Shown here: piece by piece, positions 30,606-56,251 of the stretch
Layout: every line of letters begins with the position of its first letter
How positions within the stretch are numbered: position 1 is the stretch's first letter
NCBI GenBank assembly: GCA_003528115.1
Contig: DOGZ01000006.1
Coordinates: 64,076 to 128,075 of the forward strand
Direction of reading: 5' to 3'
Origin: Candidatus Omnitrophota bacterium
Lineage (GTDB): Bacteria > Omnitrophota > Gorgyraeia > Zapsychrales > Zapsychraceae
Length of the DNA stretch: 64,000 nucleotides
The notes under the pieces: generated by a model
Database searches by the model: none
Seen by the model: the letters and a program-made list of their open reading frames with translations, nothing else
Told to the model about the DNA's origin: nothing
Position numbers and translations under genes: made by a program

Positions 30606-30626
30606 AATTTTTAAGTACTAGACCCT

Positions 30627-35333: not shown

Positions 35334-36347
35334 TTACGGCGCTAAAAATAATTTTATGGCAAGCACTACCAAAATAATTACGAACAAATAAAGCGTTACT
35401 TTCGTATTTAGCTTCGGCGCAATGCGCGCGCCGGCCTGGGCGCCAGCCACTACACCAATCCCCATCCAAAGGGCCTCGGCATACATGACATTACCCAAAA
35501 AAACATGGGGCAAAAGAGCGATCGCGCAGGTAAGCAGCGTTACAAAATGGCTCGTCGCCGTGGCGACATGCGAAGGATAATTCAAAAGAAAAATCAGAAT
35601 CGGCACCTGAAACACGCCTCCGCCGATACCTAAAAACCCGCAAAAAAAACCCAGCAAAATGTTCATCGATATGCCCAGTCCATCGTTCGCGTAAAAATCA
35701 TACTTGACACCGAATTGGTCGATGAATTTCACCCGTCGGAACCCTGAGGCCTTAGCTTCTTTAAGATATTTCTGCTTTTGATCGGTTGTCTTATCTATCC
35801 TGCCGACGCTAAAAAAAGTATACACGGCTAAAAAAATCAAAAAGATTCCGAAGATATGGTCAAAAAACGTAAGATTAACAAGATGATGGGTAAAGCTGGA
35901 TATCAGGGCTCCCGGCATTGCTGCGAGCGTAAACTTTATACCGCCCGTATAATCTATCCTTTTTTGCGCGGCATATCCGGCGCATCCGGATGAGGCGTTT
36001 AATAAGACGATAAAAAGCGATGTGGCAACAAGAAGCTCATTCTCCCACCCATAAAAGAAAACCAAAAGCGGCAGAATAATGGGTCCCCCGCCTATTCCGA
36101 CGATCGTTCCATAACAGCCGATAGCCAAACCCGTTATAAGTAAAATCCACCAGGCCGGTTGATCAGCAGCGACGGTCGGGGAGAGCTGTCCAGCCGGTTG
36201 CGCGATGGCCGGAATCTGCAGAGACGGCGGGACACGCGATGTGGATGAGCTAAACATCGCAAAAAGGGCAAGGATCACGAACAAACCCGTGAGACCTATC
36301 TTTGTATAATCTGTCCAATCGTATACAACCTCATTCTTAACGCGCAT
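35334..36347 (-). CDS. TauE/SafE-family membrane protein (stand-alone MamO-C-terminal-like)
   Basis: Duplicated TauE-type Gly-rich helices (GTIVGIGGGPIILPLLVFFYG ... GFLGIGGGVFQVPILIF). In magnetosome clusters of some lineages the TauE half of MamO is a separate gene. Confidence 0.6.
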   Translation of the reverse strand: MRVKNEVVYDWTDYTKIGLTGLFVILALFAMFSSSTSRVPPSLQIPAIAQPAGQLSPTVAADQPAWWILLITGLAIGCYGTIVGIGGGPIILPLLVFFYGWENELLVATSLFIVLLNASSGCAGYAAQKRIDYTGGIKFTLAAMPGALISSFTHHLVNLTFFDHIFGIFLIFLAVYTFFSVGRIDKTTDQKQKYLKEAKASGFRRVKFIDQFGVKYDFYANDGLGISMNILLGFFCGFLGIGGGVFQVPILIFLLNYPSHVATATSHFVTLLTCAIALLPHVFLGNVMYAEALWMGIGVVAGAQAGARIAPKLNTKVTLYLFVIILVVLAIKLFLAP

Positions 36348-36360
36348 GCTGTAAATCTCC

Positions 36361-38163
36361 TTAAGGGATGATGCTTAAAAATATAATGTAAAAAGTCGAG
36401 AGCACAAGAATGACAATCGTTATCGGTATTCCCAGACGGCTGTAATTAGCGAAGGTCAGGCCTTCCTTTTTCTTCTGATCCGTCCCCAGTTCCTCAGCAA
36501 GAGTCTGAGCTATGATGCCCGCGCTGGCGCCTGAAATACACGCGCAGGCCCCTGCTATTGATCCTAAATTTAAAGCCCACCACACAACATCCGTAAAATC
36601 CGCGAATCCTGAATGCATGACAATAGGGACAAGAAACGCCGATGCCGGTCCGGAGCTCATCAGCGCCGTAAGAAGCGTCGTTACCAACATCAAAAAGATC
36701 GGATACAGAATCTTATTGCCCATCGACATCGCGATGAGACCATCAGAAACAACCTTTAGAAGTCCGGAGTACAACGCGCCGCCGACGATCAAAAAGAGCG
36801 CGAAAAAGAATAATATGTCCGTGAGGCTTATCTTTTTTATCACCTCTTTGGCCTTTTGGTTCTCGATGGCCAAAAGGATAAAAGCACCGCCCATGGCTAT
36901 CGGCGCAAGATGTATCTTAAAACTCGGTAAAACTATAAAGGCCAGAAGAACACACCCCAAGATAAAAAGGACTCTTTTAATGTTAGGCCAATCCATCTTC
37001 ATGGCGCCAACTTCTTGTTCGACTTTGCTGAGGAATGCTTTCTCCAGTTTAAGAGACTTGACTTTTCCCTTATGCCGCAACTCGAAAAACCACAGATACC
37101 AGAGAAAAACAGCTAAAAACACAGCGCATATAGGTCCCATGACGATGAGAAAATCCATGAACGTTAATCCCGCGCTCGAGGCCATCAGCATATTGGAAAA
37201 ATCTCCAATCGGGGTAATGTTTCCGCCGATAACGGAAGAAATGATTTCAGCAATAACAACGGTGACAGGCTCGAAGTTCAATCCCCGCGAGGCATAAATT
37301 GTTATGGGAATAATGACCAAAATAACCGACATATTGTTAACCAGCGCTGACGCGATAAAGGTCATGATACACAAAGAGAGGATCACCTTGACGGAGTCGG
37401 CTTTTGACGTGATGATGATTTTCTTTGAAACATACTCAAAAAACCGTAAATCCTCGAGAAATATGGTGAAAATACTCATTCCCATAAAGATGAAAATCGG
37501 GCTCATCCGGATAGAGTCGAACGCCTCGGTTTGGTTATAAAAACCAAAAACCGAACCGGCGACCAGCATAAGGACCGCGCCCAGCGTCACACACACCGTA
37601 CGATTAAAGAGATTTAAGAAAAGCATGGAAAAGGTAATAAAGACAATCACCAGGACGACTAATATATCCCTGCCATTGGGCCCAAAGATGTCGATGCCGG
37701 CATGGACGGGAATTTTATCGGCCATATTCATGATTCTGCCATTACGCCAAATAACAAAGCTGACCTTCTCACTTGGCTTACTCTGTGACATCAAATACGC
37801 GAGGTGATTGGCGGACTGGACATCAACGCCATTGTATTCGAGGATCACATCCCCGCGCCTGATATCGATAAGACGCCTGGCCGACCCTTTCGGGACATTG
37901 TTCACTAAAACCCCGCCCACATTAGAGAGATTAAATTCCTTGGCGATGATGGTATTGACGGTAATGACATCAAATTCAAGGGCATTGGTGCCGCCGGATT
38001 GAACCAGACGCGGTTTGCTGGATCGAGGCATATTTCTGGTATCTATAAAAAGCGCCGCGAGCACAACAATGACAACCAGGGCAATGGCCGCCTCCATAAA
38101 CGGAAAACTCTTGAAACGCTCCAATTTATCTTTTTGCAAAGATCTTGACCTACTCAAAGCCAT
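36361..38163 (-). CDS. PDZ domain fused to ArsB/NhaD-superfamily ion permease (MamN-like)
   Basis: N-terminal TM plus PDZ (GGVLVNNVPKGSARRLIDIRRGDVILEYNGVDV). C-terminal ~440 aa polytopic permease with ArsB/NhaD-like motifs (NITPIGDFSNMLMASSAGL..., GSIAGACACISGASAGIIAQ). Confidence 0.55.
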   Translation of the reverse strand: MALSRSRSLQKDKLERFKSFPFMEAAIALVVIVVLAALFIDTRNMPRSSKPRLVQSGGTNALEFDVITVNTIIAKEFNLSNVGGVLVNNVPKGSARRLIDIRRGDVILEYNGVDVQSANHLAYLMSQSKPSEKVSFVIWRNGRIMNMADKIPVHAGIDIFGPNGRDILVVLVIVFITFSMLFLNLFNRTVCVTLGAVLMLVAGSVFGFYNQTEAFDSIRMSPIFIFMGMSIFTIFLEDLRFFEYVSKKIIITSKADSVKVILSLCIMTFIASALVNNMSVILVIIPITIYASRGLNFEPVTVVIAEIISSVIGGNITPIGDFSNMLMASSAGLTFMDFLIVMGPICAVFLAVFLWYLWFFELRHKGKVKSLKLEKAFLSKVEQEVGAMKMDWPNIKRVLFILGCVLLAFIVLPSFKIHLAPIAMGGAFILLAIENQKAKEVIKKISLTDILFFFALFLIVGGALYSGLLKVVSDGLIAMSMGNKILYPIFLMLVTTLLTALMSSGPASAFLVPIVMHSGFADFTDVVWWALNLGSIAGACACISGASAGIIAQTLAEELGTDQKKKEGLTFANYSRLGIPITIVILVLSTFYIIFLSIIP

Positions 38164-38243
38164 TGTTTTCTCCCGTCATTTTTCCTCATTTCCTTTTATG
38201 TGTGAAGGGAATGACCTGCCTCACCTGATTCGGCGGCCTCTCA

Positions 38244-39005
38244 TCAATTCGTCGATTTCTCCGCAGAATCGACTTGCATGGGAATAGGTTCTTTGAAATT
38301 TGGATCAATTTGTATTCGAACCGGTGTTTTAAGATCTTGATCCAGTTCCGCGTAATGAAACATTTCTTCCTTATATCCAAATATAAACGCGAAGAAACTC
38401 GCCGGAATCTGGCGAACACAAGCGTGAAAAACGCTGGCAGCCTTGTTATACTCCATGCGGCTGGCGGCAATGCGGTTTTCACTCTCAACAAGCGCGTCCA
38501 TCAATTTCTGAAAATTAGCGCTTAATTTAAGATCAGGGTACGCTTCGGCAATGGCCATGAATTTAGAAAGGGCATCTTCGATATTCCCCGCCTTCATTTT
38601 AGCCAATTCATTAAGGCCGTTCTTTTCGATCGCATTCAGGATCCTATCCGTCTTTTGCAAGGTGTCTGCCCGCTTGTCCGCCATATACTGGTACATCATA
38701 CGTTCATGCTGCGCATAAACAATAATCGTCTTGGCCAGATTAATCGCAAGATCTTTTCTCCTCTGGAGCTGTACCTCGATTTGGTGTTGCTCCATTTCTG
38801 TAAACCGCGAAAGTTGAATAAATTTGTTATGGTAATAAACGCCCAGGAGTATCATCACCACGGCCAGCAGAGAGGCCACAAGTCCTTCTTTCCTTTTTAA
38901 ATTACTGAAATTGATTTTTTGCCACCTATGTTTTCTTACCGGTTGGAACTCTTCCAAATCATTGGCAAAAAGTCTCTTGATTGTCTCTGATATCATCCTG
39001 CTCAT
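38244..39005 (-). CDS. mamQ: LemA-family protein (MamQ-like)
   Basis: N-terminal TM plus LemA signature (QIEVQLQRRKDLAINLAKTIIVYAQHE). The position next to mamA/mamB-like genes mirrors mamQ. Confidence 0.55.
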   Translation of the reverse strand: MSRMISETIKRLFANDLEEFQPVRKHRWQKINFSNLKRKEGLVASLLAVVMILLGVYYHNKFIQLSRFTEMEQHQIEVQLQRRKDLAINLAKTIIVYAQHERMMYQYMADKRADTLQKTDRILNAIEKNGLNELAKMKAGNIEDALSKFMAIAEAYPDLKLSANFQKLMDALVESENRIAASRMEYNKAASVFHACVRQIPASFFAFIFGYKEEMFHYAELDQDLKTPVRIQIDPNFKEPIPMQVDSAEKSTN

Positions 39006-39164
39006 GGGTTTTTCTCCCGCCTTTTTTATTTTTTCATAACTGCCCGCAAAACACGTTCAACATAAAACCCTACACAATCGCAATTCATTTCAAAGTCGGA
39101 AATCCCCTGATAAACTCAGGCTTCCAAGCAAAGTCGCCGGCCACTCCGACCCCTCAAACATTTT

Positions 39165-40013
39165 TTAAACCCTGGGTCTGTATTTTTCCCCCCCCCCCCG
39201 CTTAACTCCTCGTTGGATTCTCTCCATATCCATTGCCTTCTTGAAGCACGCCACGGCGTCCTTATGACTGCCGGAATTTTCATACAAAAATCCAAGGGCT
39301 TGATAATATACCGCCTCTCGGGGTTCGAGGTCGATGGCTTTCTTATAAAAATTCTTAGCCTCTTCAATCTGTTCAATCTTCTCGTAACAGGTGCCTAGTT
39401 GATAATAGATGTCGCTATTATCCGGCTGGAGCTCGCTAGCCTTATTAAGAAAAATGATCGCTTCAGGATAATCTTCGCTCATAAAGAGGCAATCGCCGAG
39501 TTCGCTAATAATGTCCGGGTCATCTTTATTAAGTTTTTCCGCTTTTCGCAAATAGCGCATCGCCTCTTTAGTTTGGTCCATATTTTTGTGGCACATGGCA
39601 ATCATATAGAGAATCTCGGCATCGTTCTCTTTTCCATTTTCGATATACTCGAGAAAATAGTCCTTGGCCGTCTCGTAATCGCCCTTATCAAAGTATTTGT
39701 AGCCCAGCTCCTTGTTGAAATTAACTTTGTTTTCTGCGGGCCCAACAAAAATATTCTTGTAACCTTCCGTGAGGCCGTTAATGAGCCGCTCGGTCGTCGA
39801 AAGAGATGCGAAAGCGGCAACTTGTAACTTTTGGCCGAGGGAGGGATTTCTTTTTTCTTCTTTGCCCTTTTTGTTTTTTTCGGACTTCCTTACCGTTTTT
39901 TCTTCTTTCACTTCTTCGCCTTCGTCAACTGATTCCTCTTCTTCTACCTTATCGGTTATATTGCTGTCTTTCTTCATTTCGCCGTGCCGATGATATTTTT
40001 TAAGCTGTTCCAT
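39165..40013 (-). CDS. mamA: TPR-repeat protein (MamA-like) with Lys/Glu-rich N-terminal extension
   Basis: About 5 TPR units (AKDYFLEYIENGK..., AMRYLRKAEKLNKDDP..., AIIFLNKASELQPDNS..., AKNFYKKAIDLEPREA..., AVACFKKAMDM). Adjacent to the CDF pair. Confidence 0.55.
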   Translation of the reverse strand: MEQLKKYHRHGEMKKDSNITDKVEEEESVDEGEEVKEEKTVRKSEKNKKGKEEKRNPSLGQKLQVAAFASLSTTERLINGLTEGYKNIFVGPAENKVNFNKELGYKYFDKGDYETAKDYFLEYIENGKENDAEILYMIAMCHKNMDQTKEAMRYLRKAEKLNKDDPDIISELGDCLFMSEDYPEAIIFLNKASELQPDNSDIYYQLGTCYEKIEQIEEAKNFYKKAIDLEPREAVYYQALGFLYENSGSHKDAVACFKKAMDMERIQRGVKRGGGEKYRPRV

Positions 40014-40031
40014 ATTTCCTCCATGCGTTTA

Positions 40032-40988
40032 TTAAGCGACCGGATTAAGCTGATTCTTTGCGCCCAGCGGCCTATTCGTTTTTGTAACCAAATTTTCTTT
40101 ACAAGTAAAAGAAATGGTCACCTCTTTTACTTGATTAAATCGGCGCATGATCGCCTGACGTACTTCGCGGGTTATGGCATGCCCCTCTTTAACTGTTCTT
40201 TTGGGATCGATAATAATCTCCATATCGATCCAAGCCTTCTGTCCAACCCTGCGGATATGGATATAATTTACGCCCTTGACTTGCCTGTACTGGAGCACCA
40301 CCTTCTCGATAAGCTTTCTTTTCTCACCTGGAAGCGATTCGTCAATGAGATTTTTAAAGGCCTGGAGACCTAAGATAACCGCCGACTTGGCGATCATCAA
40401 CCCGACTAGAACCGCTGCCAGCGCGTCGAGTATAGGAAAGCCGATGTTCGCCGCAAAAACCCCGAACAAAACCGCGACGCTTGATAACATATCTGACCTG
40501 TTTTCTTGGGCATTGGCAATCATGGCCGGAGAGTTCATCTTTTTCCCAGCGCAGAAACCATAAGAAGACAGGATATAGTTAGCGATGACGGCCACAAGCG
40601 CGGCAAAAAAAGCCGCCATGTGAGGAGGATGGATAACGCCGCTTGCGATCACCGCGAGCGCGTCCAAGAGAATCATACACGCTATTCCTAAAAGCAACAC
40701 GTAGGCAAAGACCGCGCCTAAAAATTCGGACTTCCCCAGACCCCAAGGATATTTTTTATCGTCCCTATGCCGCGAGAGGCCGACGGTTATAATAACCATC
40801 AAAGTGGTTACAACGTCTGTCCCGGAATGGATCCCGTCGGCGACAAGACCTTTTGACTTTGCGACATATCCTATGTATATCTGAAAAAGAGCCAGTGTCG
40901 CGTTCCCCAGGAGAACCACCCAGGGGACTATTTTTGAACATCGGATACATTTCTCTTCCATAACCAGTCGCTTACTCCTCTGGAACAA
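40032..40988 (-). CDS. mamM: cation diffusion facilitator transporter (MamM-like)
   Basis: 318 aa CDF with N-terminal CxRC (EEKCIRCSK), 6 TM and a C-terminal cytoplasmic domain. Paired with a second CDF, as mamM/mamB are. Confidence 0.55.
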   Translation of the reverse strand: MFQRSKRLVMEEKCIRCSKIVPWVVLLGNATLALFQIYIGYVAKSKGLVADGIHSGTDVVTTLMVIITVGLSRHRDDKKYPWGLGKSEFLGAVFAYVLLLGIACMILLDALAVIASGVIHPPHMAAFFAALVAVIANYILSSYGFCAGKKMNSPAMIANAQENRSDMLSSVAVLFGVFAANIGFPILDALAAVLVGLMIAKSAVILGLQAFKNLIDESLPGEKRKLIEKVVLQYRQVKGVNYIHIRRVGQKAWIDMEIIIDPKRTVKEGHAITREVRQAIMRRFNQVKEVTISFTCKENLVTKTNRPLGAKNQLNPVA

Positions 40989-41868
40989 CCTGTATAGCGA
41001 TGTTCCCTATATGTTTATCTTCACCGCGTAAATACGCCTTGACCGATTGATTTATCTTCTTCGCCTCGAGGACGCTTATCTTCGGATCCAGTTGCATGAT
41101 AACATCTAGAACAATCTGCCTTCCTGATTGACGTCCCCGCACTTGGTTAACTCTGCTTACGCCACTGACCTTAAGAATACAGTTTTTTATATTTTCAAGA
41201 TAATCAGCAGGGAGATTCGTATCCATAATGCCTTTAAGGCCTTCTTTAAGAATAGCAAAACTGCCGTGCAAGACGTGGGCGCATTCAAAAATGGCTATAG
41301 CCGGGTCAACCCAATGCATCCCTTTGCGTGTGACGATCACGCCGACAGCAACCAAAAGAGATGAGATAACATCAATCTTATTATGTTCCGCGTGCGCCTT
41401 TAACGCGGGACTGTTCAGTTCCTTGCCGCCACAATGCGCGAACTTATAGAGAAGTCCGTTGATAACAGCGCTCAAGATGGCCACAAAAAATACAACCATG
41501 TGCTGAACAATAAGAATACGTTTCGCGATAACAATGAACGAACTGAAGATGAGTGCGACCGTGCCCAAAATCATCGTGGCGCTCATTATGACCTGGGCGA
41601 TAAACTCGATTTTGCCGTAACCGTAAGGGTACCGATGATCCGCCGGCTTTTTTGAATACTTTATGCCGGTAATAACGACCACGGAGGAACTTATGTCGCT
41701 TAAATTACACAAGCCGCTTCCGATTAAGGCGCGACTGCGTCCCAAAAAACCGACGAAAAGCTTAAAGGCCGCGAGAAAAAGATTCGCCAGAAGTCCCAAC
41801 AGGATGGTCTTACGCGCGCAGGCCTCACATTTTTCCGGATTTTTTGTTGACTCATGCCTCATCTTCAA
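40972..41868 (-). CDS. mamB: cation diffusion facilitator transporter (MamB-like)
   Basis: 298 aa CDF. N-terminal CEAC. KPADHRYPYGYGKIEF and NSPALKAHAEHNKIDVISS closely resemble recalled MamB blocks (KPADERYPFGYGN..., NSPAIIANAWDNRSDAISS). Confidence 0.6.
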   Translation of the reverse strand: MKMRHESTKNPEKCEACARKTILLGLLANLFLAAFKLFVGFLGRSRALIGSGLCNLSDISSSVVVITGIKYSKKPADHRYPYGYGKIEFIAQVIMSATMILGTVALIFSSFIVIAKRILIVQHMVVFFVAILSAVINGLLYKFAHCGGKELNSPALKAHAEHNKIDVISSLLVAVGVIVTRKGMHWVDPAIAIFECAHVLHGSFAILKEGLKGIMDTNLPADYLENIKNCILKVSGVSRVNQVRGRQSGRQIVLDVIMQLDPKISVLEAKKINQSVKAYLRGEDKHIGNIAIQVVPEE

Positions 41869-42127
41869 ACAGTTCCTCGTCCTCTTCCACCAATTCGCTT
41901 AATTTCCGTTTCTTCTTCATCTTAGCGCCAATGTGGACCATAAACCAAAATATGTTTGACGCGCCAATCAGGTACGAAATCAATATGATAACGATCAACC
42001 CGCATTGCCGACCTCTAAAAAGCGGTATCCATATCGGAACGGGCGTGAGATTCTCAAAGATAAACATGCCCAAAAAGGTAAGGATCAAAAGCAGCGCGAT
42101 TATCTTCAATACCGTCTTTATCTTCAT
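41852..42127 (-). CDS. small 2-TM membrane protein with basic then acidic C-terminal tail (MamL-like candidate)
   Basis: 91 aa, two hydrophobic helices, KMKKKRK then EEDEELFEDEA tail. Overlaps the mamB-like start. Confidence 0.4.
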   Translation of the reverse strand: MKIKTVLKIIALLLILTFLGMFIFENLTPVPIWIPLFRGRQCGLIVIILISYLIGASNIFWFMVHIGAKMKKKRKLSELVEEDEELFEDEA

Positions 42128-42221: not shown

Positions 42222-43373
42222 TTATTTCTTTAAAATGATATGACACGTGTTGCATTTACCGCGATATTCATGCGGAGGAATCGCCCCCCTAGTTATCGGC
42301 GGCGGGTTAGGCAATATGTCCCCCGCGTCTGTCGGAAGTTGACCGCCGGTCGCCATAAAAATATGGCAAGCCGTACATGGCTGATGCCTGATGCGATGCG
42401 GACTTAAGGCATTTGGCGTTATGGGTTGGGCAGCCTCATTTTGTGAAAATCCCAGTGTCCTTGTTGATGAGAATGTAAATTCCAGTAATTGCCCGCGCCG
42501 GGAAACGAGTATTTTTGCTTTATACCTATTTTTCACTCTTCTCGTGGCTTCGGTAAAGGCAATGAGGTCTGGTGTGGCAATCCGATTTACAGCAACGACC
42601 ACATCTCCCGCCAATATCCCGGATTCAGCGGACTCAAGCGATATCTCATCAACGAGAAGCCCATTGATTTCCGCAGGAACCTGATATTCCTTGGCCAACT
42701 CCGGTGTAAGCGGAATAAGTTCGATCCCGAGCCAGTGCCCCTCAATGAGTTCTTTGTGGACGGCGCCCTGTTCTCTCGGGCTAGGGAGTTTCAAGGGAGG
42801 AGTATTCTGGCCGCCCATAATCGCTCCTGCCTCGCCGGCAGCCGGACCTGCCTCGGCTGTTTCAGCAGGCGAACGATTCGCAAACGCTGCCTGCGTCATC
42901 CCCTGAGGAATACCGGCAGTACCGGTAATCGCCGCATCAAGATTCAGCGCTTTTTTATCGTTGATTCCTAATTTATTTTCCATGGTAATATAAAGCGGCT
43001 GCCCATTGCGCAGCATATCCAAAAGGACGCCCGTCTCTAAGTTTGCCGCCTTGGCTCCTTTAAGAAATTCAGATATGTTCTTTACTTTTTTATTGTTAAT
43101 CGCCTTCAAAAGGTCGCCGCCGAGCACGCCTGCCGAATAGGCCGGGTCCTCACTCCAGTTGACAACGACACCTTGCTCATCTTTGGGAATGTTGAACTCC
43201 ATCCTAAGCGCGGGCGTGATGTTTGAGACCGACATACCGGCCCACTCGGCATCACCAGCGCCTATATGCATAAGCGCTGCCATAAAGAAAAGCGCCATGG
43301 CTCCAAGCGTTAGGAGAAGAAGAAATCTCTGTCTATTTTTGTGACGGTGTTGGTTAAGTTTATCAGGCATCAA
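42222..43373 (-). CDS. PDZ-domain protein with two C-terminal CXXCH magnetochrome-like motifs (MamP / MamE-Cter-like)
   Basis: N-terminal TM, two PDZ-like regions, then SPHRIRHQPCTACH and PPHEYRGKCNTCH (P-x-H-x5-6-C-x-x-C-H). Confidence 0.6.
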   Translation of the reverse strand: MMPDKLNQHRHKNRQRFLLLLTLGAMALFFMAALMHIGAGDAEWAGMSVSNITPALRMEFNIPKDEQGVVVNWSEDPAYSAGVLGGDLLKAINNKKVKNISEFLKGAKAANLETGVLLDMLRNGQPLYITMENKLGINDKKALNLDAAITGTAGIPQGMTQAAFANRSPAETAEAGPAAGEAGAIMGGQNTPPLKLPSPREQGAVHKELIEGHWLGIELIPLTPELAKEYQVPAEINGLLVDEISLESAESGILAGDVVVAVNRIATPDLIAFTEATRRVKNRYKAKILVSRRGQLLEFTFSSTRTLGFSQNEAAQPITPNALSPHRIRHQPCTACHIFMATGGQLPTDAGDILPNPPPITRGAIPPHEYRGKCNTCHIILKK

Positions 43374-43382: not shown

Positions 43383-43646
43383 TTATTTTGAGGTTGTTTT
43401 AGGTTTAAGTTCAATACGCTCGATAGCGGTATTGCATTCCTTGCAGACCCAAAGCTGTCTCTTGGCTCCCATCATATATAAACCAATCACAAAGAGTGGA
43501 ATCCCTAAAACCGCGCCGATCCAAAAAAGCGTCGCGAAAACACCGCCCGCGACTAAAAATCCTCCAACTTTCCTACTATAGCGAGGTCCTGTATAAGACT
43601 GCATCTCGCCATTACAAAGCGAACAAATTAAAGGCTTGTTTGTCAT
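43383..43646 (-). CDS. small membrane protein with split zinc-ribbon (CSLC...CKEC) flanking a TM hairpin
   Basis: 87 aa. CxxC at residues 8-11 and 68-71, two TM helices between. Confidence 0.4.
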   Translation of the reverse strand: MTNKPLICSLCNGEMQSYTGPRYSRKVGGFLVAGGVFATLFWIGAVLGIPLFVIGLYMMGAKRQLWVCKECNTAIERIELKPKTTSK

Positions 43647-43969: not shown

Positions 43970-45472
43970 TCAATTGCCGCCACCAATGACGACGTGCGCG
44001 GTGTTTGGGTCCTGCATTACGTTATTCTGCGTCTGACTATTTTGCATCCTGCTCTGAATATTCTGCGCGCCCGCCGGGGTTCCCAATTGATGGCAATTGG
44101 TGCATGATCCCCGGTACTCATGAGGCATAATGATAGGGGGTGCAACTGCTGCCCCTTGCGGTGTGCCCTGGGCCACAAAACCTGCATTTTGCGTCATAGC
44201 GACCTGGTTTGTAAAATTACCGGTACCGCCAAAGCCTAACGGAGCCGCATTGTTTGGGATATTTTGATTCTGCGAATACGCGCCACCTTGTGCCATAATC
44301 TGGTCACAGTTAGGGCATCGAGGATACGGATCGTTTGGATCTTTCTGGGCATACATCCTCCAGTTACAATTTGGACAGAGAAAAAAACCGGTTGATTCAG
44401 GGCCCTGCCAAAAATTTGGCTGGTTGGTCATCTGGTTCATCTGGGGCCGAAGTTGTGTCATATCTGCCGCCCATTGCCCTTCTGACCACCACTTCCCGAT
44501 TTTATTCTGGTTAGACATATCGAGGGCCAAGGGAGAAGCACAGTTCGGACAATTCGGAAAGTTATTCCCCTGACGGGTCGCTTTCATTCGCCAATTACAA
44601 TTCGGACAAACAAAAGCCTGTTGCCCCCAACCAAAAGCGGCCTGAGTCCCCGCCGTAGCAAAATTATTCCCCATGCCCATACCATCCATCACGCCTTTGT
44701 TGTATATGTCCTGTGTTCCCCAGCCGGCTGGCACCCCACCATATATGCCGCCGCCCTGCATTCGATTCGGAATTGGGCAGAAATAATTGTTCATTCCCAT
44801 GCCCTGCATATCCTGCATTCCCCAACCAGTTTGTGTTGCTTGTTGTGCGACATTTTGCTGCATCATCAGTGTTCCTTGCCCGTGGACTGCTTGCGCATTG
44901 CCCCAAGTCGGTTGAGGCGTTTGCATTATCGGTGAAATTTGGGGAATATTCGCCGTAGGTTGCGGTACTTGTGCTATCCGGGCTTGCCGATAAAGCTTGA
45001 TGACATTGCGCGTCTGACCTTGATACCCGCCAAACACCCGTATGTCGAATTGCAAAAGAATGTTATAACTTTGCTGGTCTATGCTTCCTACGATAACGGC
45101 TTCCTCCCCTTTGCCGGCTATTAAATACGCGATCTGAGGATTAGGCTCCGCGCCACGATAAGGATTCTTTATGGCCTCAACGAGTTTTCTTGACAAAGGA
45201 TCGACCACCAAAAAGAAGCTCGCCTCAGACAATGTCGCGGATACATTTGAAGCCAAAGACGGTCCGTCCGTAGCAACAACGATTTTCCCGCAGGCGGGAT
45301 TTCCCAGTCTTGAATTCTGGGATCCAGGTGAGAATAGGGCATACACACCGACGACTAATACAAAAACAATTGCGCCAAAAATAAAATAAGTATTTAAGTC
45401 GGTATTTCTTACACGCGCTGTGAATTCCTCAAAGAATGTCTTGATGATTTTCTCTTGGGGTTTCTTTACCAT
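43970..45472 (-). CDS. mosaic protein: TM + NifX/NifB-like (FeMo-cofactor-binding-fold) domain + Gln/Gly/Met-rich region + two CPNC...CPNC zinc-ribbon pairs + C-terminal magnetochrome-like CXXCH
   Basis: GKIVVATDGPSLASNVSATLSEASFFLVVDP...AYLIAGKGEEAVIVGSI resembles the dinitrogenase FeMo-cofactor-binding fold. CPNCNWRM...CPNC occurs twice. C-terminal MPHEYRGSCTNCHQ. Confidence 0.55.
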   Translation of the reverse strand: MVKKPQEKIIKTFFEEFTARVRNTDLNTYFIFGAIVFVLVVGVYALFSPGSQNSRLGNPACGKIVVATDGPSLASNVSATLSEASFFLVVDPLSRKLVEAIKNPYRGAEPNPQIAYLIAGKGEEAVIVGSIDQQSYNILLQFDIRVFGGYQGQTRNVIKLYRQARIAQVPQPTANIPQISPIMQTPQPTWGNAQAVHGQGTLMMQQNVAQQATQTGWGMQDMQGMGMNNYFCPIPNRMQGGGIYGGVPAGWGTQDIYNKGVMDGMGMGNNFATAGTQAAFGWGQQAFVCPNCNWRMKATRQGNNFPNCPNCASPLALDMSNQNKIGKWWSEGQWAADMTQLRPQMNQMTNQPNFWQGPESTGFFLCPNCNWRMYAQKDPNDPYPRCPNCDQIMAQGGAYSQNQNIPNNAAPLGFGGTGNFTNQVAMTQNAGFVAQGTPQGAAVAPPIIMPHEYRGSCTNCHQLGTPAGAQNIQSRMQNSQTQNNVMQDPNTAHVVIGGGN

Positions 45473-45526: not shown

Positions 45527-46117
45527 TCACTTAAAAACAGGACCGTACTGAAACACTTTTCCAGAAAACGGCGAACCAAGCTGCCAACTCCCCTTATTTG
45601 GTCCTAAAAGCGGGCCGTATTGATATTCGAAGGGGATGGCTATATATAAAGTCTTTCCATCCCGATTAATGTCTAAGAGAATTCCTTCCGTATATTGAAC
45701 ACTATTAGCCACTTTGACAAAGGCACGGGCCGTCGCAACGGGCTTCCGGCCAATGGCGACGATAACATCACCGGTCTTTACTCCGTATTTTTGGGCCAAT
45801 TGTTTTCCCTCATCAATAACGAACATCCCTTTGATTTTAGCCTGGATATTGAATTCCTTCCTGATACTCCGTGAAAGAGGGGCCAGCTCCATACCGACCC
45901 ACATCAAGCTGTCTCCTTTTTCAATAACCATGCCTTTTGTCACTTCCTTTGGTTCCTGCTTCTCTGGAAGGATCTCTAAGGAAGATAATAATCGGAAAAA
46001 GACAATGATCCCGAAGACCACGATACCGGCAAAATACCACGGCTTTTCTAACGCAAAATCTTTAACCTGTTTTTGAAATTTTTTAAATGTAGGATTCGCC
46101 CTGGACTTTGTGTTCAT
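45527..46117 (-). CDS. membrane-anchored PDZ-domain protein
   Basis: N-terminal TM plus PDZ (GMFVIDEGKQLAQKYGVKTGDVIVAIGRKPV). Confidence 0.55.
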   Translation of the reverse strand: MNTKSRANPTFKKFQKQVKDFALEKPWYFAGIVVFGIIVFFRLLSSLEILPEKQEPKEVTKGMVIEKGDSLMWVGMELAPLSRSIRKEFNIQAKIKGMFVIDEGKQLAQKYGVKTGDVIVAIGRKPVATARAFVKVANSVQYTEGILLDINRDGKTLYIAIPFEYQYGPLLGPNKGSWQLGSPFSGKVFQYGPVFK

Positions 46118-47517
46118 TGTAATTTTATTAACACCTCATCGACCTTACCGTTTCTAAGGACACGCACGTTGACGTTGTCCCCAGTCTTAAAATGCGCGAC
46201 TATTTTTGGAATATCGTCTTTCCCGGTAATCGGCACACCGGCTACCGCGACAATGATGTCTCCGCGTTGGATACCGGCAAAACTGGCTGGAGATTCGTCA
46301 ATAACTCTATTGACTAAAACACCCTGCCGCTCGGTAATCCCGAACTGTCGCGCTATGACAGCGTCCACCGGCATGACCTCAATCCCAAAATGAACAGGAA
46401 TTGGGGCTTTTTGCGTCTTATTAAGATCCCTAAAGTCTCCGACCAGCATCCCTTTTTGATCAACTGGGAATGAATAGTTCTTGCCGAGATTTTCCGCAAG
46501 AAAATCTTTACAGTCATTGATCGGTATGGCAAACCCTGTCCCGCTAAAAACTCCTGTCGGCGCGTAAATAGCCGTATTGATTCCAATAACCTCTCCTCTT
46601 AAATTAACAAGGGGGCCTCCGGATGATCCTCGGTTTATGGGCGTGTCCGTCTGAAAAAGGTTTTTATACCGAACACCTTCAATCGCGATGGATTTCCGTA
46701 TGCCGCTGATAATCCCGCTGGTAACTGTCTGCTCAATACCAAAAGGGCTGCCCACGGCGATGACATAATCACCTAACTGGCTGAAACTGGAATCCCCTAA
46801 TTTCGCTTCGGGAAATGGGCCGTCGGCTTTGACTTTAATAAGGACCAGGTCGTTGTCGGGATCCTGCGCGATAATATCCGCGTGATAATCACGGGGAGGC
46901 GTACCAAAGATTGTTACAACGATATCCGTTGCATCGTGGGTCACATGACAGTTCGTCAGCACATATCCTCGTTCATCAACAATGACGCCCGCGCCGATAT
47001 TCTCGTATCCTTTATTTTCAATAAATTTATCAACACTACCGTCAAACGAAGGGATAAATTTTAAATTTTGCGCATCGATGGCTTGCCGATTGCCGGGTGA
47101 ACGAACAATTCTTCGGGCATGCACGTCACACACGGAAGGGATGACAGCATTAACAGCGTCTTTCAATGAATTCTGAAAAACGCTGTGTGATGAATTGGCC
47201 ACAAGCTGCATATTCCCGTAGGGTGTTGCCTTAGTGATGCCCGCGAGTGCATAATCCCCGGCAGATTGTGGACTGTTCACGGCGGCCTGCGTAACCGCTT
47301 TGGGGAAGGACGGCTCACCGGTAATAGGAGAAGTGACCTTGGGCACGCGCTCCTTTTCCATCTCAACCCCTTGAATGATATCTTCCCTCTTCATCATAAC
47401 CCAAAAAACTAACATGACGCAGATAAGAGCCACGCCGGCAATCCAGGGACCGATCGGTTGATTACAAAATTGACCTCTGTTTTCATCCATCACATAAACT
47501 CCGCTGTCCGTCCCCAA
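46114..47517 (-). CDS. trypsin-like serine protease (HtrA/DegP family) with C-terminal PDZ (MamE-Nter / MamO-like)
   Basis: Catalytic triad context: TNCHVTHDAT (His), DLVLIKV (Asp), GSSGGPLVN (Ser). PDZ at the C-terminus. N-terminal TM. No CXXCH, so the magnetochrome part appears to be encoded separately (42222..43373). Confidence 0.7.
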   Translation of the reverse strand: MGTDSGVYVMDENRGQFCNQPIGPWIAGVALICVMLVFWVMMKREDIIQGVEMEKERVPKVTSPITGEPSFPKAVTQAAVNSPQSAGDYALAGITKATPYGNMQLVANSSHSVFQNSLKDAVNAVIPSVCDVHARRIVRSPGNRQAIDAQNLKFIPSFDGSVDKFIENKGYENIGAGVIVDERGYVLTNCHVTHDATDIVVTIFGTPPRDYHADIIAQDPDNDLVLIKVKADGPFPEAKLGDSSFSQLGDYVIAVGSPFGIEQTVTSGIISGIRKSIAIEGVRYKNLFQTDTPINRGSSGGPLVNLRGEVIGINTAIYAPTGVFSGTGFAIPINDCKDFLAENLGKNYSFPVDQKGMLVGDFRDLNKTQKAPIPVHFGIEVMPVDAVIARQFGITERQGVLVNRVIDESPASFAGIQRGDIIVAVAGVPITGKDDIPKIVAHFKTGDNVNVRVLRNGKVDEVLIKLQ

Positions 47518-47693: not shown

Positions 47694-47912
47694 TCAAAAG
47701 ACAAATTTGTTGGCAGCATCAACGTCCGTTGATGGATTCGGAAAAGCCGCCTGCACTGCGGCTTTCTTGGGTGTCGCCTTGCGATGCGCTTTACCATGCT
47801 TACGGGTGCCTTTGAATTCAATGAAAATCGCGCCCGCCATGACAACGCAAACCACAACGATGACCAAGAATCCGAGCCAAGGACTAAAACATTTTTCCTT
47901 CTTACCGATCAT
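47694..47912 (-). CDS. small single-TM protein with basic C-terminal tail
   Basis: 72 aa. TM (WLGFLVIVVVCVVMAGAIFI) then KGTRKHGKAHRKATPKK. Confidence 0.35.
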   Translation of the reverse strand: MIGKKEKCFSPWLGFLVIVVVCVVMAGAIFIEFKGTRKHGKAHRKATPKKAAVQAAFPNPSTDVDAANKFVF

Positions 47913-48155: not shown

Positions 48156-48617
48156 CTATGTGAAAATTTTTAAGAGCGCGTTCTTCGCCGAAGCGAAATG
48201 TTTGCCGGATAAATAAAACCTTTCTCTAAAAAATTCATTAATTTTGTCCTTTTTCGCGGACATAAGGACGTTTGAGGATTCCGCCACCGCGTTTTGTTCC
48301 ATCCTCTTAAGAACTTTTTTTCTCTGAGGATAGTCCCTGGCAAGATATTTAGGGTCTGCTGAAGTAATTTCCTTTGATTCCAAACAAGACACGCTTGGTG
48401 AGTCAGTACCGGATTCGGTGGGCTCTTGTTTAATCGATTGGCTTTCTTTCTTGAGAAGAACTAGGATGGCTTCTCTGGGTATTCTCTGGTGCCCGCCAAG
48501 GGTGGAAACAGCTAAAAGTTTACCTTTTTTGATCCAATTAAGAATTGTAAAACGTGTTACATCGCAGATCTTTGCCGCTTGCGATGTCGTTAAGTACTCG
48601 TTAGGCATAACTGGCAT
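48156..48617 (-). CDS. HTH DNA-binding protein (excisionase/MerR-like HTH; MamR-like?)
   Basis: N-terminus LTTSQAAKICDVTRFTILNWIKKGKLLAVSTLGGHQRIPRE is a MerR/excisionase-type HTH_17 motif. The C-terminal 100 aa have no recognisable fold. Confidence 0.5.
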   Translation of the reverse strand: MPVMPNEYLTTSQAAKICDVTRFTILNWIKKGKLLAVSTLGGHQRIPREAILVLLKKESQSIKQEPTESGTDSPSVSCLESKEITSADPKYLARDYPQRKKVLKRMEQNAVAESSNVLMSAKKDKINEFFRERFYLSGKHFASAKNALLKIFT

Positions 48618-48629
48618 GTCTTAATTTAA

Positions 48630-48902
48630 AATGTTGAATAGAACAGATTGAAAAATTAAATTACACAGTTTAAAGCGGGTGGCGCGTAATGTTTTATATA
48701 AAAACGTCCGCGTTGTCAATTTATATTTTCACTTGATAAAAATGTTGAAATTGTTGAAGTAGTTTCATACGATTTTTATTAAGGGAAATCGAGTTTAAAG
48801 TTAGAAATATCCTCGTTAACTCAGGATGGGCAACTATCTGGCATCATTGGGATAATGATGCTTGCCGCTTTGGACTAACGAATGTTGAAATTGCCGAAGT
48901 CA
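48630..48902. promoter_or_regulatory. three direct repeats AATGTTGAA(ATTGYYGAAGT) in the 292-bp intergenic region upstream of the HTH gene
   Basis: aatgttgaatagaacag (48630), aatgttgaaattgttgaagtag (48741), aatgttgaaattgccgaagtca (48881). Confidence 0.4.
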
Positions 48903-48909
48903 TCATCTC

Positions 48910-49680
48910 TTAAAACCTGAGATACTTGCGGCAAAGGCCGGTAAGAAAGAGAGGTAAAATAAAAAGACCGCTAAAAGCTTCGATAACGGCAACCGCTTTA
49001 CTAAATCCAATAGGAATTACATATTCAGCGCCCACTTTAGTGAACGTGGTAAAACTAAAATAGGTTGCCTGAAATAAATCAGGTTTTATGATCATATTGT
49101 CCCTGCTAAGGTGTCCGCGGGTATATAACACCGAGCATAAGAGAACCAACAAAAAGCCGAAAAACGCTGTACGGTGAGGTCGCTCACCATGCCCCCATAC
49201 GAGGGAAGAAAAGGTCAAGGTTATAAGGGGAACCAATCTCCTGCCAACTAACTTGAGGTTGAACTTAATTTCCACATTATCATCTTTCTTCGAAGCACGA
49301 AACAAATCAAAGAATAGAAATTTTCGATAAGATTCTTTGGACCTAAAAAAACATTCGGAATAGGCAAGGTAATCATGATCCCGCTCATAACTGACTGCCG
49401 CATATTTATAGAGCATGGAGGCATACTCTAAATCCATGGAAACCTCTGCTTCTCGGGCGGCTTCCTCATAAAGGTAGGCGATACGCTGAAATGTTTTTTG
49501 CCCAAACATAAGCGCCAGGCTGCTTGCCGCGGCAGCCAAACAAATCGCCGCCTGATTATGTTTTTCTTCCTTTTGAAAGGCCCTGGCAGCTTGAAAATAT
49601 AAATCCCCCGCATCTTCATACTTATGTTCCCCAAGAAGCTGTTGGGCTTTTTGCTCAAGCGATTTTAAATCTGATGCCAT
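48910..49680 (-). CDS. two-TM pore-domain (Ion_trans_2-like) channel protein with N-terminal soluble helical domain
   Basis: C-terminal TM-pore loop-TM with FTTFTKVGAEY in place of the K-channel TTVGYG filter. Confidence 0.45.
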   Translation of the reverse strand: MASDLKSLEQKAQQLLGEHKYEDAGDLYFQAARAFQKEEKHNQAAICLAAAASSLALMFGQKTFQRIAYLYEEAAREAEVSMDLEYASMLYKYAAVSYERDHDYLAYSECFFRSKESYRKFLFFDLFRASKKDDNVEIKFNLKLVGRRLVPLITLTFSSLVWGHGERPHRTAFFGFLLVLLCSVLYTRGHLSRDNMIIKPDLFQATYFSFTTFTKVGAEYVIPIGFSKAVAVIEAFSGLFILPLFLTGLCRKYLRF

Positions 49681-49681
49681 T

Positions 49682-50035
49682 TTATAGCCCTTTCAAGGCA
49701 TCTTCGCGATTCTCAAAAATACCGAATAACTTATGCACTTTGGTAATCTCAAATACACCTATATTTCTTTTATTGACATGACATAAGCGCATGCGCCCGC
49801 CGACTTTTTCCAAATTTTGAAACATCTCGAGAAGGGTGGCAATCCCTGAGCTGTCAATAAAGCCAACCTTTTCAAAATCAATTAAAACCTTGATATTCCC
49901 GTCTTTTAAAATTTTTTTAAAGGTCTCCCGCAACATATTGGAATAATTCATATTGAGTTCACCCTCCAATTTAACAATGACATTATCGTTTATTTTCTCA
50001 ATTTTTATGTTCACTTTCCCCTCCCTTGCTTTCAA
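49682..50035 (-). CDS. STAS-domain anti-sigma factor antagonist (SpoIIAA/RsbV-like)
   Basis: 117 aa. GELNMNYSNMLRETF...IDFEKVGFIDSSGIATLLE is a STAS fold with a conserved phospho-Ser context (DSSG). Confidence 0.75.
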   Translation of the reverse strand: MKAREGKVNIKIEKINDNVIVKLEGELNMNYSNMLRETFKKILKDGNIKVLIDFEKVGFIDSSGIATLLEMFQNLEKVGGRMRLCHVNKRNIGVFEITKVHKLFGIFENREDALKGL

Positions 50036-50474: not shown

Positions 50475-50562
50475 ACGGTTTTAATTAAGGCGGTAGTATA
50501 TCAAAATATCCCATCTGCGCAAAATAAAAATAATCTGCCTTAACAATGGATAGCTTAACGGC

Positions 50563-52716: not shown

Positions 52717-52741
52717 TATTTTCCTTAATGTTATAAAATCC

Positions 52742-54889: not shown

Positions 54890-54892
54890 CCT

Positions 54893-56233: not shown

Positions 56234-56251
56234 ATTTCTTTCATTTTAATT

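Follow-up and report, generated by a model that had tools for sequence, protein, structure and literature searches.

A probable MamP orthologue with two PDZ domains and two magnetochrome units in an Omnitrophota magnetosome gene cluster

Gene layout and magnetochrome motifs of the mamP locus

The window, that is, the whole 64,000 nt stretch of DNA analysed here, has the sequence of contig MHFX01000005.1 from Omnitrophica WOR_2 bacterium GWA2_45_18, a genome obtained through groundwater metagenomics (Rifle) without magnetic enrichment. On its minus strand, an open reading frame (ORF) spans 42222..43373, in which the ATG at 43368-43370 was taken as the start of a probable mamP gene; this start is supported by the homologues, which begin with MPDKL or MPNKI. 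The encoded protein is composed, in order, of a transmembrane (TM) anchor, a first PDZ domain (PDZ1), an Ala/Gly/Glu/Pro-rich linker, a second PDZ domain (PDZ2) and two magnetochrome units (MCR1 and MCR2) (Table 1). The original prediction had placed two magnetochrome-like motifs at the C-terminus of a double-PDZ protein. Both motifs were located there, within the final 64 residues before the stop codon (PNALSPHRIRHQPC...CNTCHIILKK, encoded by 42225-42416), and both PDZ domains were recovered, by Pfam as PDZ families in two stretches and by AlphaFold2 as two PDZ folds at residues 42-131 and 217-302 with pLDDT >90. The conserved Pro, expected about 7-8 residues upstream of CXXCH, precedes the first Cys by 8 and 7 residues, while the proposed P-x-H spacing had to be corrected to an adjacent PH pair (PH-x6-CXXCH in MCR1 and PH-x5-CXXCH in MCR2).

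Translating the window in six frames gave 10 CXXCH occurrences, where 100 shuffles averaged 3.6, and three distinct P(x)H-x4-8-CXXCH sites, where the shuffles averaged 0.08 and never exceeded 1. A chance origin of the motifs was thereby rejected. All three P(x)H-x4-8-CXXCH sites fall in two adjacent genes of one cluster.

Table 1. Features of the mamP locus and the surrounding gene cluster, in window positions
Feature	Position	Strand	Evidence or remark
TauE/mamO-Cter-like	35334-36347	-	Pfam and NCBIfam scans
PDZ-mamN-like transporter	36361-38163	-	Pfam and NCBIfam scans
mamQ LemA	38244-39005	-	Pfam and NCBIfam scans
mamA TPR	39165-40013	-	Pfam and NCBIfam scans
mamB-like CDF	40032-40988	-	Pfam and NCBIfam scans
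mamM-like CDF	40972-41868	-	Pfam and NCBIfam scans
Probable mamP orthologue, 382 aa + stop	42222..43370	-	ORF; NCBIfam MamP E 5e-63; PDB 4JJ0 E 7.5e-39
Magnetochrome 2, full unit	42237..42296	-	I360-x6-P367 H368-x5-C374 NT C377 H378-I379
MCR2 motif PPHEYRGKCNTCH	42240-42278	-	
Magnetochrome 1, full unit ITPNALSPHRIRHQPCTACHI	42360..42422	-	I318-x6-P325 H326-x6-C333 TA C336 H337-I338
MCR1 motif SPHRIRHQPCTACH	42363-42404	-	
PDZ2, MamP-type PDZ with E211, H213, E218, E243	42468..42743	-	Alignment to MO-1 MamP
PDZ1, extra membrane-proximal PDZ	42981..43250	-	Pfam PDZ_1/PDZ_2, residues 43-130; pLDDT >90
N-terminal helix with the sole membrane-spanning segment	43257..43364	-	Core FLLLLTLGAMALFFMAALM; AlphaFold2 helix 4-39
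Neighbour gene, 500 aa	43970..45472	-	Pfam Nitro_FeMo-Co, Zn ribbon and MCR, all sub-threshold
Third magnetochrome-like unit VAPPIIMPHEYRGSCTNCHQL	44084..44146	-	PH-x5-CXXCH; motif MPHEYRGSCTNCH at 44090-44128
NifX-like domain of the 500-aa protein	44978..45289	-	Pfam PF02579, residues 75-162, 25.2 bits (cutoff 26.3)
TM-anchored single-PDZ protein, 196 aa	45527..46117	-	Paralogue of the MamP TM-PDZ1 module; syntenic in Omnitrophota
mamE-like HtrA protease	46114..47517	-	NCBIfam MamE 255 bits; Pfam Trypsin_2

The Kyte-Doolittle hydrophobicity of the protein peaks at residue 17 (2.46), and the basic residues KNRQR precede the hydrophobic core; based on the positive-inside rule, the protein is predicted to be oriented N-in, with the remainder periplasmic or magnetosome-lumenal. 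PDZ1 shares 23% identity with PDZ2 and 35% with the PDZ of the neighbouring single-PDZ gene, and it has none of the iron-pocket ("crucible") residues. Four of these reside in PDZ2; E313 (42435-42437), the remaining one, is located in the stretch from PDZ2 to MCR1.

The gene order of the cluster is mamE, PDZ, NifX-MCR, mamP, mamM, mamB, mamA, mamQ, mamN-like and mamO(TauE), in which the genes downstream of mamP span 35334..41868 (-). Approximately 20 intact ORFs follow one another on one strand with overlapping start/stop junctions. Neither mamK nor mamI was recognised within the window; four small conserved ORFs (72, 87, 88 and 91 aa) match no significant NCBIfam or Pfam family, so that mamI and mamL could not be assigned. 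A promoter/terminator consensus scan over 33-49 kb returned 19 promoter and 22 terminator hits, compared with 24.9 and 19.0 in shuffles, respectively; counts no higher than these mean that operon boundaries are not derivable from the scan. The same gene order is common to approximately 22 Omnitrophota metagenome-assembled genomes (MAGs), many of which stem from magnetically enriched samples (Lin 2018, 2020). The genome of the window itself was absent from the contigs recovered for synteny, presumably because it is no species representative.

The mamE-like product contains a trypsin domain with the catalytic-serine motif GSSGG and one PDZ, and a motif check of 46114-47517 found no CXXCH. The MamP / MamE-C-terminal architecture that had been suggested held for its MamP part but not for the MamE C-terminus.

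Identity and architecture of the probable MamP orthologue

MamP is an iron-oxidising cytochrome used by magnetotactic bacteria in magnetite crystal growth; it acts as a dimeric ferroxidase, and its mutants have crystal-size defects. Among the NCBIfam models, MamP (NF040965) was the best family for the ORF by >150 bits, scoring 213.4 bits, followed by HtrA PDZ regions at no more than 62 bits, yet its equivalog cutoff of 300 bits was missed. Since NF040965 appears to have been built mainly from Proteobacteria, we read this shortfall as divergence rather than exclusion. The alignment to the magnetochrome profile that had been recommended as a check returned Pfam MCR (PF18509) as the only cytochrome family matched, with 37.8 bits for the whole protein against a gathering threshold of 30.4 bits; not every unit passes this threshold alone, the MCR2 peptide scoring 34.8 bits and the MCR1 peptide 20.6 bits.

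Comparison with the experimentally solved structures pointed in the same direction. Using phmmer, residues 188-381 were aligned to MO-1 MamP (4JJ0), the two PH..CXXCH units being in register, with a single 1-residue gap in each unit region, and the top Foldseek matches to the AlphaFold2 model were 4JJ3 and 4JJ0 (4JJ3_B, E 3.2e-11, 42% identity). This match rests on PDZ2, as the model is of low confidence in the haem region (pLDDT <50 over residues 310-383), which we attribute to the absence of haem from the model. The model thus supports the two PDZ folds and the TM helix, and leaves the magnetochrome fold without structural confirmation.

Residue conservation provided a finer measure. The iron-pocket residues of MO-1 MamP, Glu91, His93, Glu98, Glu123 and Glu193 (PMC3905215), correspond to E211, H213, E218, E243 and E313 here, which are kept in at least 120 of 121 homologues and are invariant in alignment A1. 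Both magnetochromes are present in 118 of 120 relatives. In the 49 sequences of alignment A1, P325, H326, C333, C336 and H337 of MCR1 are invariant, as are H368, C374, C377 and H378 of MCR2, so that the haem ligands are invariant throughout. The published magnetochrome consensus reads psi1-X5-9-PH-X5-9-CX2CH-psi2, with [P/T/H]H as the sixth-ligand pair (PMC3971196); both units fit its CX2CH, upstream PH pair and psi1/psi2 positions, the flanking hydrophobics being I318/I338 and I360/I379, of which I318 and I360 are invariant. The outcome named beforehand as contrary, a better fit to generic multihaem folds or a deviant spacing, was not observed, and the spacing is that of the magnetochrome consensus. 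Taken together, the Pfam, NCBIfam, 4JJ0, iron-pocket and cluster evidence bears out the prediction of magnetochrome motifs in a MamP-type protein. We consider it very likely that ORF 42222-43370 is the MamP orthologue of the GWA2_45_18 magnetosome gene cluster and acts by a MamP-like mechanism.

MO-1 MamP (4JJ0/4JJ3) and Magnetospirillum MamP (NF040965) share a TM anchor followed by PDZ, MCR1 and MCR2. The ORF is 42% identical to MO-1 MamP over approximately 170-190 residues, with PH-x5/6-CXXCH units, an inter-unit linker of about equal length and the five crucible residues in common, and, like classical mamP, it adjoins mamM/mamB-type genes in a mamAB-like operon. Unlike classical MamP, it is longer by approximately 110 aa, owing to the extra PDZ and a linker of approximately 70 Ala/Gly/Glu/Pro-rich residues, and the PH-to-CXXCH gap in MCR1 is six residues instead of five. 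The canonical TM-PDZ-MCR1-MCR2 protein corresponds to residues 1-39 plus 213-382, and the extra PDZ (42-131) and the linker are inserted after the TM segment, which is a variation on the MamP architecture and not a loss. MamPs of other Omnitrophota MAGs are 47-83% identical, with equal architecture and gene order and no material difference.

The mamP finding was already known, in that Lin et al. 2018 (ISME J; PMC5955933; supplement) list a near-complete magnetosome cluster in GWA2_45_18 (MHFX00000000); the cluster has thus been known since 2018, and the mamP result is a re-discovery of a core magnetosome gene with nothing new for the field. The word "MamP" has zero occurrences in the main texts of Lin et al. 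2018 (PMC5955933) and Lin et al. 2020 (PMC7602337), neither of which discusses MamP domain architecture in its text, and MHFX is absent from the supplement of Uzun 2020. A literature search returned nothing joining "Omnitrophus magneticus" with magnetochrome, and in the literature searched we found no description of the extra membrane-proximal PDZ in Omnitrophota MamP, of an Omnitrophota MamE lacking haem motifs, or of the NifX-like/zinc-ribbon/single-magnetochrome protein described below.

A NifX-like neighbour with a third magnetochrome-like unit

The 500-aa product of the neighbour gene carries the third motif, which the original prediction had correctly assigned to the next large gene at about 44087-44134. 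Its one hydrophobic segment is N-terminal and serves as a TM anchor, followed by a NifX/MTH1175-like domain, a Q/G/N/M-rich region that holds two CPNC..CPNC zinc ribbons, and one C-terminal magnetochrome, which would thus face the lumen or periplasm. Against Pfam MCR, the third unit stayed under the 30.4 cutoff whether scored as a peptide (28.9 bits) or within the whole protein (22.8 bits). In alignment A2, H451, C457, C460 and H461 (C457TNC460H461) are invariant. Its psi1 is V443, while the psi2 position is occupied by Gln (Q462, followed by L463), which departs from the consensus and is kept in at least 90% of alignment A2. We collected 56 homologues of the 500-aa protein, nearly all from Omnitrophica, and at least one magnetochrome was found in 50 of them.

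The NifX-like domain is of the dinitrogenase iron-molybdenum cofactor family. Against the PDB, it matched 1EO1 (MTH1175; E 2.8e-6) and 1RDU (E 5.8e-5). A profile search with the 500-aa family retrieved, via the NifX domain, MCR-PDZ-NifX proteins of the Desulfobacterota MamP*/FmpB type at E 1e-36 to 1e-24, including a "magnetosome protein MamP" of Ca. Desulfarcum epimagneticum.

FmpB/MamP* (DMR_41100) of Desulfovibrio magneticus RS-1 and its counterparts in other Desulfobacterota carry a NifX/NifB-like domain in addition to magnetochrome(s) (PMC3971196 Table 1; PMC4287615). The 500-aa protein resembles them in being TM-anchored and putatively luminal and in joining a magnetochrome with NifX, and the NifX domains are homologous. 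The two nevertheless differ in domain order (NifX N-terminal and MCR C-terminal, versus MCR-PDZ-NifX), in MCR number (usually one in the 500-aa family, versus two to five), in the lack of a PDZ in the 500-aa protein, with a separate PDZ gene just upstream, and in the two to six zinc ribbons and the Q/G/N/M-rich region inserted in the 500-aa family. Furthermore, in Omnitrophota the 500-aa protein occurs alongside a canonical MamP, whereas RS-1 and BW-1 have no canonical MamP (PMC3971196). The 500-aa protein and FmpB/MamP* are thus related and probably function alike without sharing an architecture, and by analogy with FmpB the former is probably a further luminal redox partner.

Proposed mechanism and alternative readings

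A mechanism can be proposed by the precedent of Siponen 2013, as summarised in PMC3971196 and PMC3840617, with topology and dimerisation modelled on the MO-1 and AMB-1 work. The single N-terminal helix would anchor MamP in either the magnetosome membrane or the cytoplasmic membrane, and the remainder would face the lumen or periplasm, where the cytochrome c maturation machinery would attach one haem c per CXXCH; no cytochrome c maturation genes were recognised within the window. The His of each CXXCH would serve as the fifth iron ligand and the upstream PH His as the sixth. Two PDZ2 domains would dimerise as in MO-1 MamP to form an acidic crucible (E211, H213, E218, E243 and E313), above which four haems would hang exposed to solvent. 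The MamM/MamB CDF transporters encoded nearby could supply Fe(II), which would then be bound in the crucible and oxidised to Fe(III), giving the mixed-valence iron that magnetite requires; by analogy, both haem attachment and ferroxidase activity are ascribed to this MamP. PDZ1 is most likely a protein-interaction module, because it has no pocket residues, and the quaternary arrangement may differ, because characterised MamP lacks any equivalent of PDZ1 and of the 70-residue linker. By this reading GWA2_45_18, an organism known from its genome alone, would form magnetosomes.

A genuine MamP-type dihaem protein could also serve a role other than Fe(II) oxidation for magnetite, for which electron exchange with the NifX/MCR neighbour, a reductase function or greigite (Fe3S4) formation come into consideration. 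Uzun et al. 2020 clustered Omnitrophica Mam proteins with the greigite group and left the mineral type unresolved, Omnitrophota genomes with both types of cluster are described in Lin 2020, MamP is here paired with a NifX-like, potentially Fe-S-binding luminal protein, and even model strains have yielded no known electron partner for MamP. Nonetheless, the five pocket residues on which MamP depends for its function in AMB-1 and MO-1 are strictly conserved, which argues for unchanged iron-binding chemistry, and nothing sulfide-specific was found within the window; we therefore hold such a role to be unlikely, though the most credible of the alternatives.

Somewhat less likely still, the cluster could be silent or a relic, its MamP intact in sequence and unused. 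The unrecognised mamK and mamI and the origin of the genome outside magnetic enrichment would agree with this, and silent clusters have been described from other bacteria (PMC9938234); against it stand the run of intact one-strand ORFs with overlapping junctions, the strong conservation of sequence and order in approximately 22 genomes, and the invariance of the functional residues.

We regard it as highly improbable that the ORF is instead MamT or a C-terminal part split off from MamE, as in the "MamE-Cter" type of deep-branching magnetotactic bacteria. Alphaproteobacteria MamE is made of the same building blocks as the MamP ORF, in that it likewise joins magnetochromes with PDZ and a magnetosome membrane anchor; Planctomycetota relatives (P0087, P0098 and P0105) carry a trypsin domain joined to a MamP-like module; and the MamE of this cluster is free of haem motifs, as though they had been relocated. 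However, the NCBIfam MamE and MamT models gave no match at E <=0.01, compared with 213 bits for MamP, the MamP-specific crucible residues are present, and the PDZ-MCR-MCR order is that of MamP, while MamE is arranged as trypsin-MCR-MCR-PDZ and MamT has no PDZ (PMC3971196). MamE identity was rejected on the absence of a trypsin domain from ORF 42222-43370 together with the unmatched NCBIfam MamE model, and MamT identity (TM plus tandem MCRs only) on the presence of two PDZs and the unmatched NCBIfam MamT model.

Haem c is universally attached through CXXCH. A generic small multihaem c-type cytochrome, such as a respiratory electron carrier with incidental PDZs and no relation to magnetosomes, would accord with this, with the confinement of the motifs to the C-terminal 64 residues and with the sub-threshold score of MCR1 alone, but is hardly tenable and effectively refuted by the Pfam, PDB, crucible and cluster evidence: no other cytochrome family (c3, paired-CXXCH etc.) was matched at E <=10 by the three motif peptides or at E <=0.01 by the whole proteins, the best PDB match is MamP across PDZ2 and both haem units, and the crucible residues are kept in a gene within a syntenic magnetosome cluster.

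Returning to the MamP orthologue, we tentatively suggest, as a possibility with the odds somewhat against it, that Omnitrophota run their own magnetosome redox module, composed of a two-PDZ MamP, a magnetochrome-less MamE and a permuted NifX/zinc-ribbon/Q-G-N-M-rich/single-magnetochrome protein. Such a module is undescribed as such. In this arrangement the captured PDZ of MamP would be paralogous to the neighbouring single-PDZ gene. If the NifX-like domain indeed carries an Fe-S or iron species in the lumen, this would amount to iron handling of a new kind, and it could bear on magnetite versus greigite formation in Omnitrophota, a phylum of questioned mineral type in which the strictly conserved MamP iron pocket is itself of note. 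Together with this pocket, the second PDZ, the haem-less MamE and the NifX/zinc-ribbon/single-MCR partner provide testable handles on the organisation of iron redox in deep-branching magnetotactic bacteria.

A further point of modest value concerns annotation. The GenBank entry for the GWA2_45_18 MamP is labelled "hypothetical protein" and starts at an internal Met, which cuts the TM helix and loses the membrane anchor. The motifs also show that magnetochromes can be picked out reliably by reading raw sequence.

Magnetochrome motifs and family identity of MamP

Translated in all six frames, the window contains 10 CXXCH motifs (mean of 100 shuffles 3.6), and P(x)H-x4-8-CXXCH was found at three distinct sites (shuffle mean 0.08, maximum 1), all of which lie within the mamP ORF and its large neighbour. 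The span 42225-42416, originally predicted to hold two magnetochrome-like motifs, is exactly the last 64 codons of the mamP ORF, whose translation ends with both units as ...PNALSPHRIRHQPCTACHIFMATGGQLPTDAGDILPNPPPITRGAIPPHEYRGKCNTCHIILKK*; the third copy expected in the next large gene was also located there. Residues I318...P325 H326...C333xxC336H337 I338 of the first unit (MCR1) and I360...P367 H368...C374xxC377H378 I379 of the second (MCR2) match the published consensus, psi1-X5-9-PH-X5-9-CX2CH-psi2 (PMC3971196). The predicted distance to the haem motif held, as PH-x6-CXXCH and PH-x5-CXXCH, whereas the P-x-H pair proved to be an adjacent P-H.

Features of the window discussed in the text
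Feature	Position	Strand	Remark
mamP ORF	42222..43373	-	383 codons from TTG; 382 aa from ATG at 43368-43370
First motif (MCR1)	42363-42404	-	mamP ORF
Second motif (MCR2)	42240-42278	-	mamP ORF
mamP start region	43295-43373	-	
Third motif	44090-44128	-	MPHEYRGSCTNCH; next large ORF
NifX-like / zinc-ribbon / MCR protein	43970-45472	-	500 aa
TM-anchored single-PDZ protein	45527-46117	-	
MamE-like HtrA protease	46114-47517	-	trypsin plus PDZ, without CXXCH
Small membrane ORF	41852-42127	-	91 aa
Small membrane ORF	47694-47912	-	72 aa
CxxC membrane ORF	43383-43646	-	87 aa
MamN-like transporter	36361-38163	-	600 aa
TauE protein	35334-36347	-	
Far end of cluster	28265-33967	-	
H+-pyrophosphatase	25451-27871		
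Region past mamE	48156-63942		
FeoB	59285-61516		
CQNCH motif	59166-59180		unannotated frame
Glycolytic-domain ORF	9140-15940	-	2266 aa

The predicted double-PDZ architecture was borne out, since two stretches of the protein match Pfam PDZ families and AlphaFold2 (49-sequence alignment) modelled a TM helix at residues 4-39 and PDZ folds at 42-131 and 217-302 with pLDDT above 90. The Pfam magnetochrome family PF18509 scored 37.8 bits against the protein (cutoff 30.4) and was the sole match of the first, second and third motif peptides alone (20.6, 34.8 and 28.9 bits), for which no other cytochrome family appeared in Pfam at E values up to 10. A better fit to generic multihaem folds was not seen, and a generic multihaem cytochrome is ruled out by the profile results together with the gene context.

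By far the best family was NCBIfam MamP (213 bits, E 5e-63), a score below the equivalog cutoff of 300. The solved MamP of MO-1 (4JJ0/4JJ3) aligned with residues 188-381 (E 7.5e-39), both haem units being in register, and was the top Foldseek match (E 3e-11, 42% identity), with tandem-PDZ HtrA proteases ranking below. The iron-binding 'crucible' of MO-1 MamP is lined by Glu91, His93, Glu98, Glu123 and Glu193 (PMC3905215), which correspond to E211, H213, E218, E243 and E313; these were kept in at least 120 of 121 relatives, while both haem units were found in 118 of 120, with ligand residues invariant in the curated alignment. Of the MamP / MamE-C-terminal architecture originally proposed, these comparisons support MamP and not the MamE C-terminus; MamE or MamT identity is ruled out by domain content and model scores.

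In contrast to textbook MamP, here the TM helix is followed by an additional PDZ (PDZ1) and an Ala/Gly/Glu/Pro-rich linker of roughly 70 residues, and only then comes the canonical PDZ (PDZ2). PDZ1 shares only 23% identity with PDZ2 and lacks the pocket residues; its 35% identity to the TM-PDZ protein encoded two genes upstream suggests a paralogue fusion with a protein-interaction role. Further arrangements occur in more distant relatives, among them PDZ-PDZ-MCR-PDZ-MCR-MCR in a KSB1 bacterium and trypsin-PDZ-PDZ-MCR×2-3 in Planctomycetota. In Planctomycetota/Phycisphaerae (loci L023-L033; proteins P0087, P0098, P0105), the MamP-like PDZ-MCR module, with two or three magnetochromes, either forms one polypeptide with a MamE-type trypsin protease or comes immediately after it, and no NifX-MCR gene was detected near it in these loci. 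MamE of the present cluster carries no magnetochromes.

The GenBank model of mamP, a 358-aa 'hypothetical protein', begins at an internal Met (MALFFMAAL...) and so lacks the basic N-terminal residues and the greater part of the TM helix. In about 50 genomes, homologues start about 24 residues earlier with MPDKL/MPNKI..., and this longer form supports the ATG as the mamP start.

Gene cluster and the NifX-like protein

The neighbours of mamP all lie on one strand with several overlapping junctions, in the order 72-aa ORF, MamE-like protease, single-PDZ protein, 500-aa protein, two small membrane ORFs, MamP, 91-aa ORF, MamM-like and MamB-like CDF transporters, MamA (TPR), MamQ (LemA), PDZ-MamN-like transporter, TauE protein (MamO C-terminal type), another PDZ protein, AmaP-like anchor, FecR-like protein and HEAT-repeat proteins. 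By tblastn of the cluster proteins against 33 related loci, the order from the 72-aa ORF to the AmaP-like gene was common to about 22 Omnitrophota MAGs, and Planctomycetota relatives showed another arrangement.

Six PDZ domains occur in five proteins of the cluster. The MamN-like transporter has an N-terminal TM plus PDZ extension and 'MamO' is represented only by the stand-alone TauE protein, both being kept in Omnitrophota loci. Directly upstream of mamP, the 87-aa ORF, with N- and C-terminal CxxC around two hydrophobic segments, is syntenic at 56-77% identity in every Omnitrophota locus examined and has no Pfam or NCBIfam family. The conserved 91-aa ORF (weak LapA-like match, acidic tail EEDEELFEDEA) and 72-aa ORF flank the mamE and mamP genes; neither is recognised by a Pfam or NCBIfam model, and they may correspond to mamI or mamL.

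The family of the 500-aa protein, almost entirely confined to Omnitrophota, combines a TM segment, a NifX/MTH1175-like domain (PDB 1EO1, E 2.8e-6), a Q/G/N/M-rich region containing 0-6 zinc ribbons (CxxC…CxxC), and 1-4 C-terminal magnetochromes, usually one, with a conserved CHQ. An exhaustive profile search linked its NifX domain to Desulfobacterota TM-MCR(2-5)-PDZ-NifX(1-2) proteins (E 1e-36 to 1e-24), including 'magnetosome protein MamP' of Ca. Desulfarcum epimagneticum. These are the MamP*/FmpB class, of which RS-1 mutants form fewer particles (PMC3971196 Table 1; PMC4287615). The Omnitrophota protein is thus related to FmpB and probably works alike. Its domain architecture differs, and Omnitrophota also have a canonical MamP beside it, unlike RS-1 and BW-1. 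Two very long distant matches, P0186 (Desulfamplus sp. MAG, 1262 aa) and P0189, have two PDZ and several NifX-like domains, CxxC pairs that resemble zinc ribbons, and extended 'GMPTA' repeats, with no obvious magnetochrome, and appear to be another elaboration of the NifX-in-magnetosome theme.

Proposed function and prior knowledge

For MamP, the analysis shows homology, conserved motifs and pocket residues, one TM segment and the cluster context. By analogy with MO-1 and AMB-1 MamP (PMC3971196, PMC3840617), the N-terminal helix would anchor a body located in the magnetosome lumen or periplasm, and each CXXCH would covalently hold one haem liganded by its own His and the PH His. Two PDZ2 domains would dimerise to form an acidic pocket with four exposed haems above; Fe(II) imported by MamM/MamB could bind there and be oxidised, and the resulting Fe(III) would pass through ferrihydrite to magnetite. 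The redox role could be another one, for example in greigite formation (Uzun 2020 called the mineral type of Omnitrophica into question) or as an electron relay with the NifX protein, but the pocket residues, the ligand residues and the gene order are strictly conserved, which speaks against it. The same conservation disfavours a cluster that is silent in this organism.

NCBI contig MHFX01000005.1 (assembly GCA_001804395.1) carries a gene for the identical MamP protein; MHFX00000000 is Omnitrophica WOR_2 bacterium GWA2_45_18, whose origin is given as Rifle well CD01 (Lin et al. 2018 ISME J, Supplementary Table 2, PMC5955933). The cluster is thus a published one: Lin et al. 2018 report that this public genome holds a nearly complete magnetosome gene cluster, recognised there for the first time. 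A further 20 Omnitrophota MTB genomes came with Lin et al. 2020 (PMC7602337), and many of our homologues and loci are from that set. MamP, which belongs to the core mam genes, is not mentioned in the text of either paper. The MamP finding is thus already known, and any novelty would lie in the lineage-specific extras.

Other genes of the window

At the far end of the cluster, adjoined by an H+-pyrophosphatase gene, are two HEAT-repeat proteins (653 and 420 aa), which we take to be Mad23-like by domain content, together with a FecR-domain protein, an AmaP-like membrane anchor and two ORFs without family. Past mamE, an HTH regulator and an ion-channel protein accompany a partner-switching set (STAS, HATPase_c_2 kinase, CHASE2-SpoIIE phosphatase), followed by a metal-uptake-looking block of P-type ATPase, two porin-like proteins, FMN_bind protein and FeoB, farther along the window than the cluster; a CQNCH motif lies immediately downstream of feoB. 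The 2266-aa ORF, apparently several glycolytic-enzyme domains joined in one giant protein, has strong Pfam matches to triosephosphate isomerase (726-827), class-II fructose-bisphosphate aldolase (1112-1456) and the N- and C-terminal domains of enolase (1567-2120; Enolase_C E 2.9e-51), and its region has unusually negative GC and AT skew.
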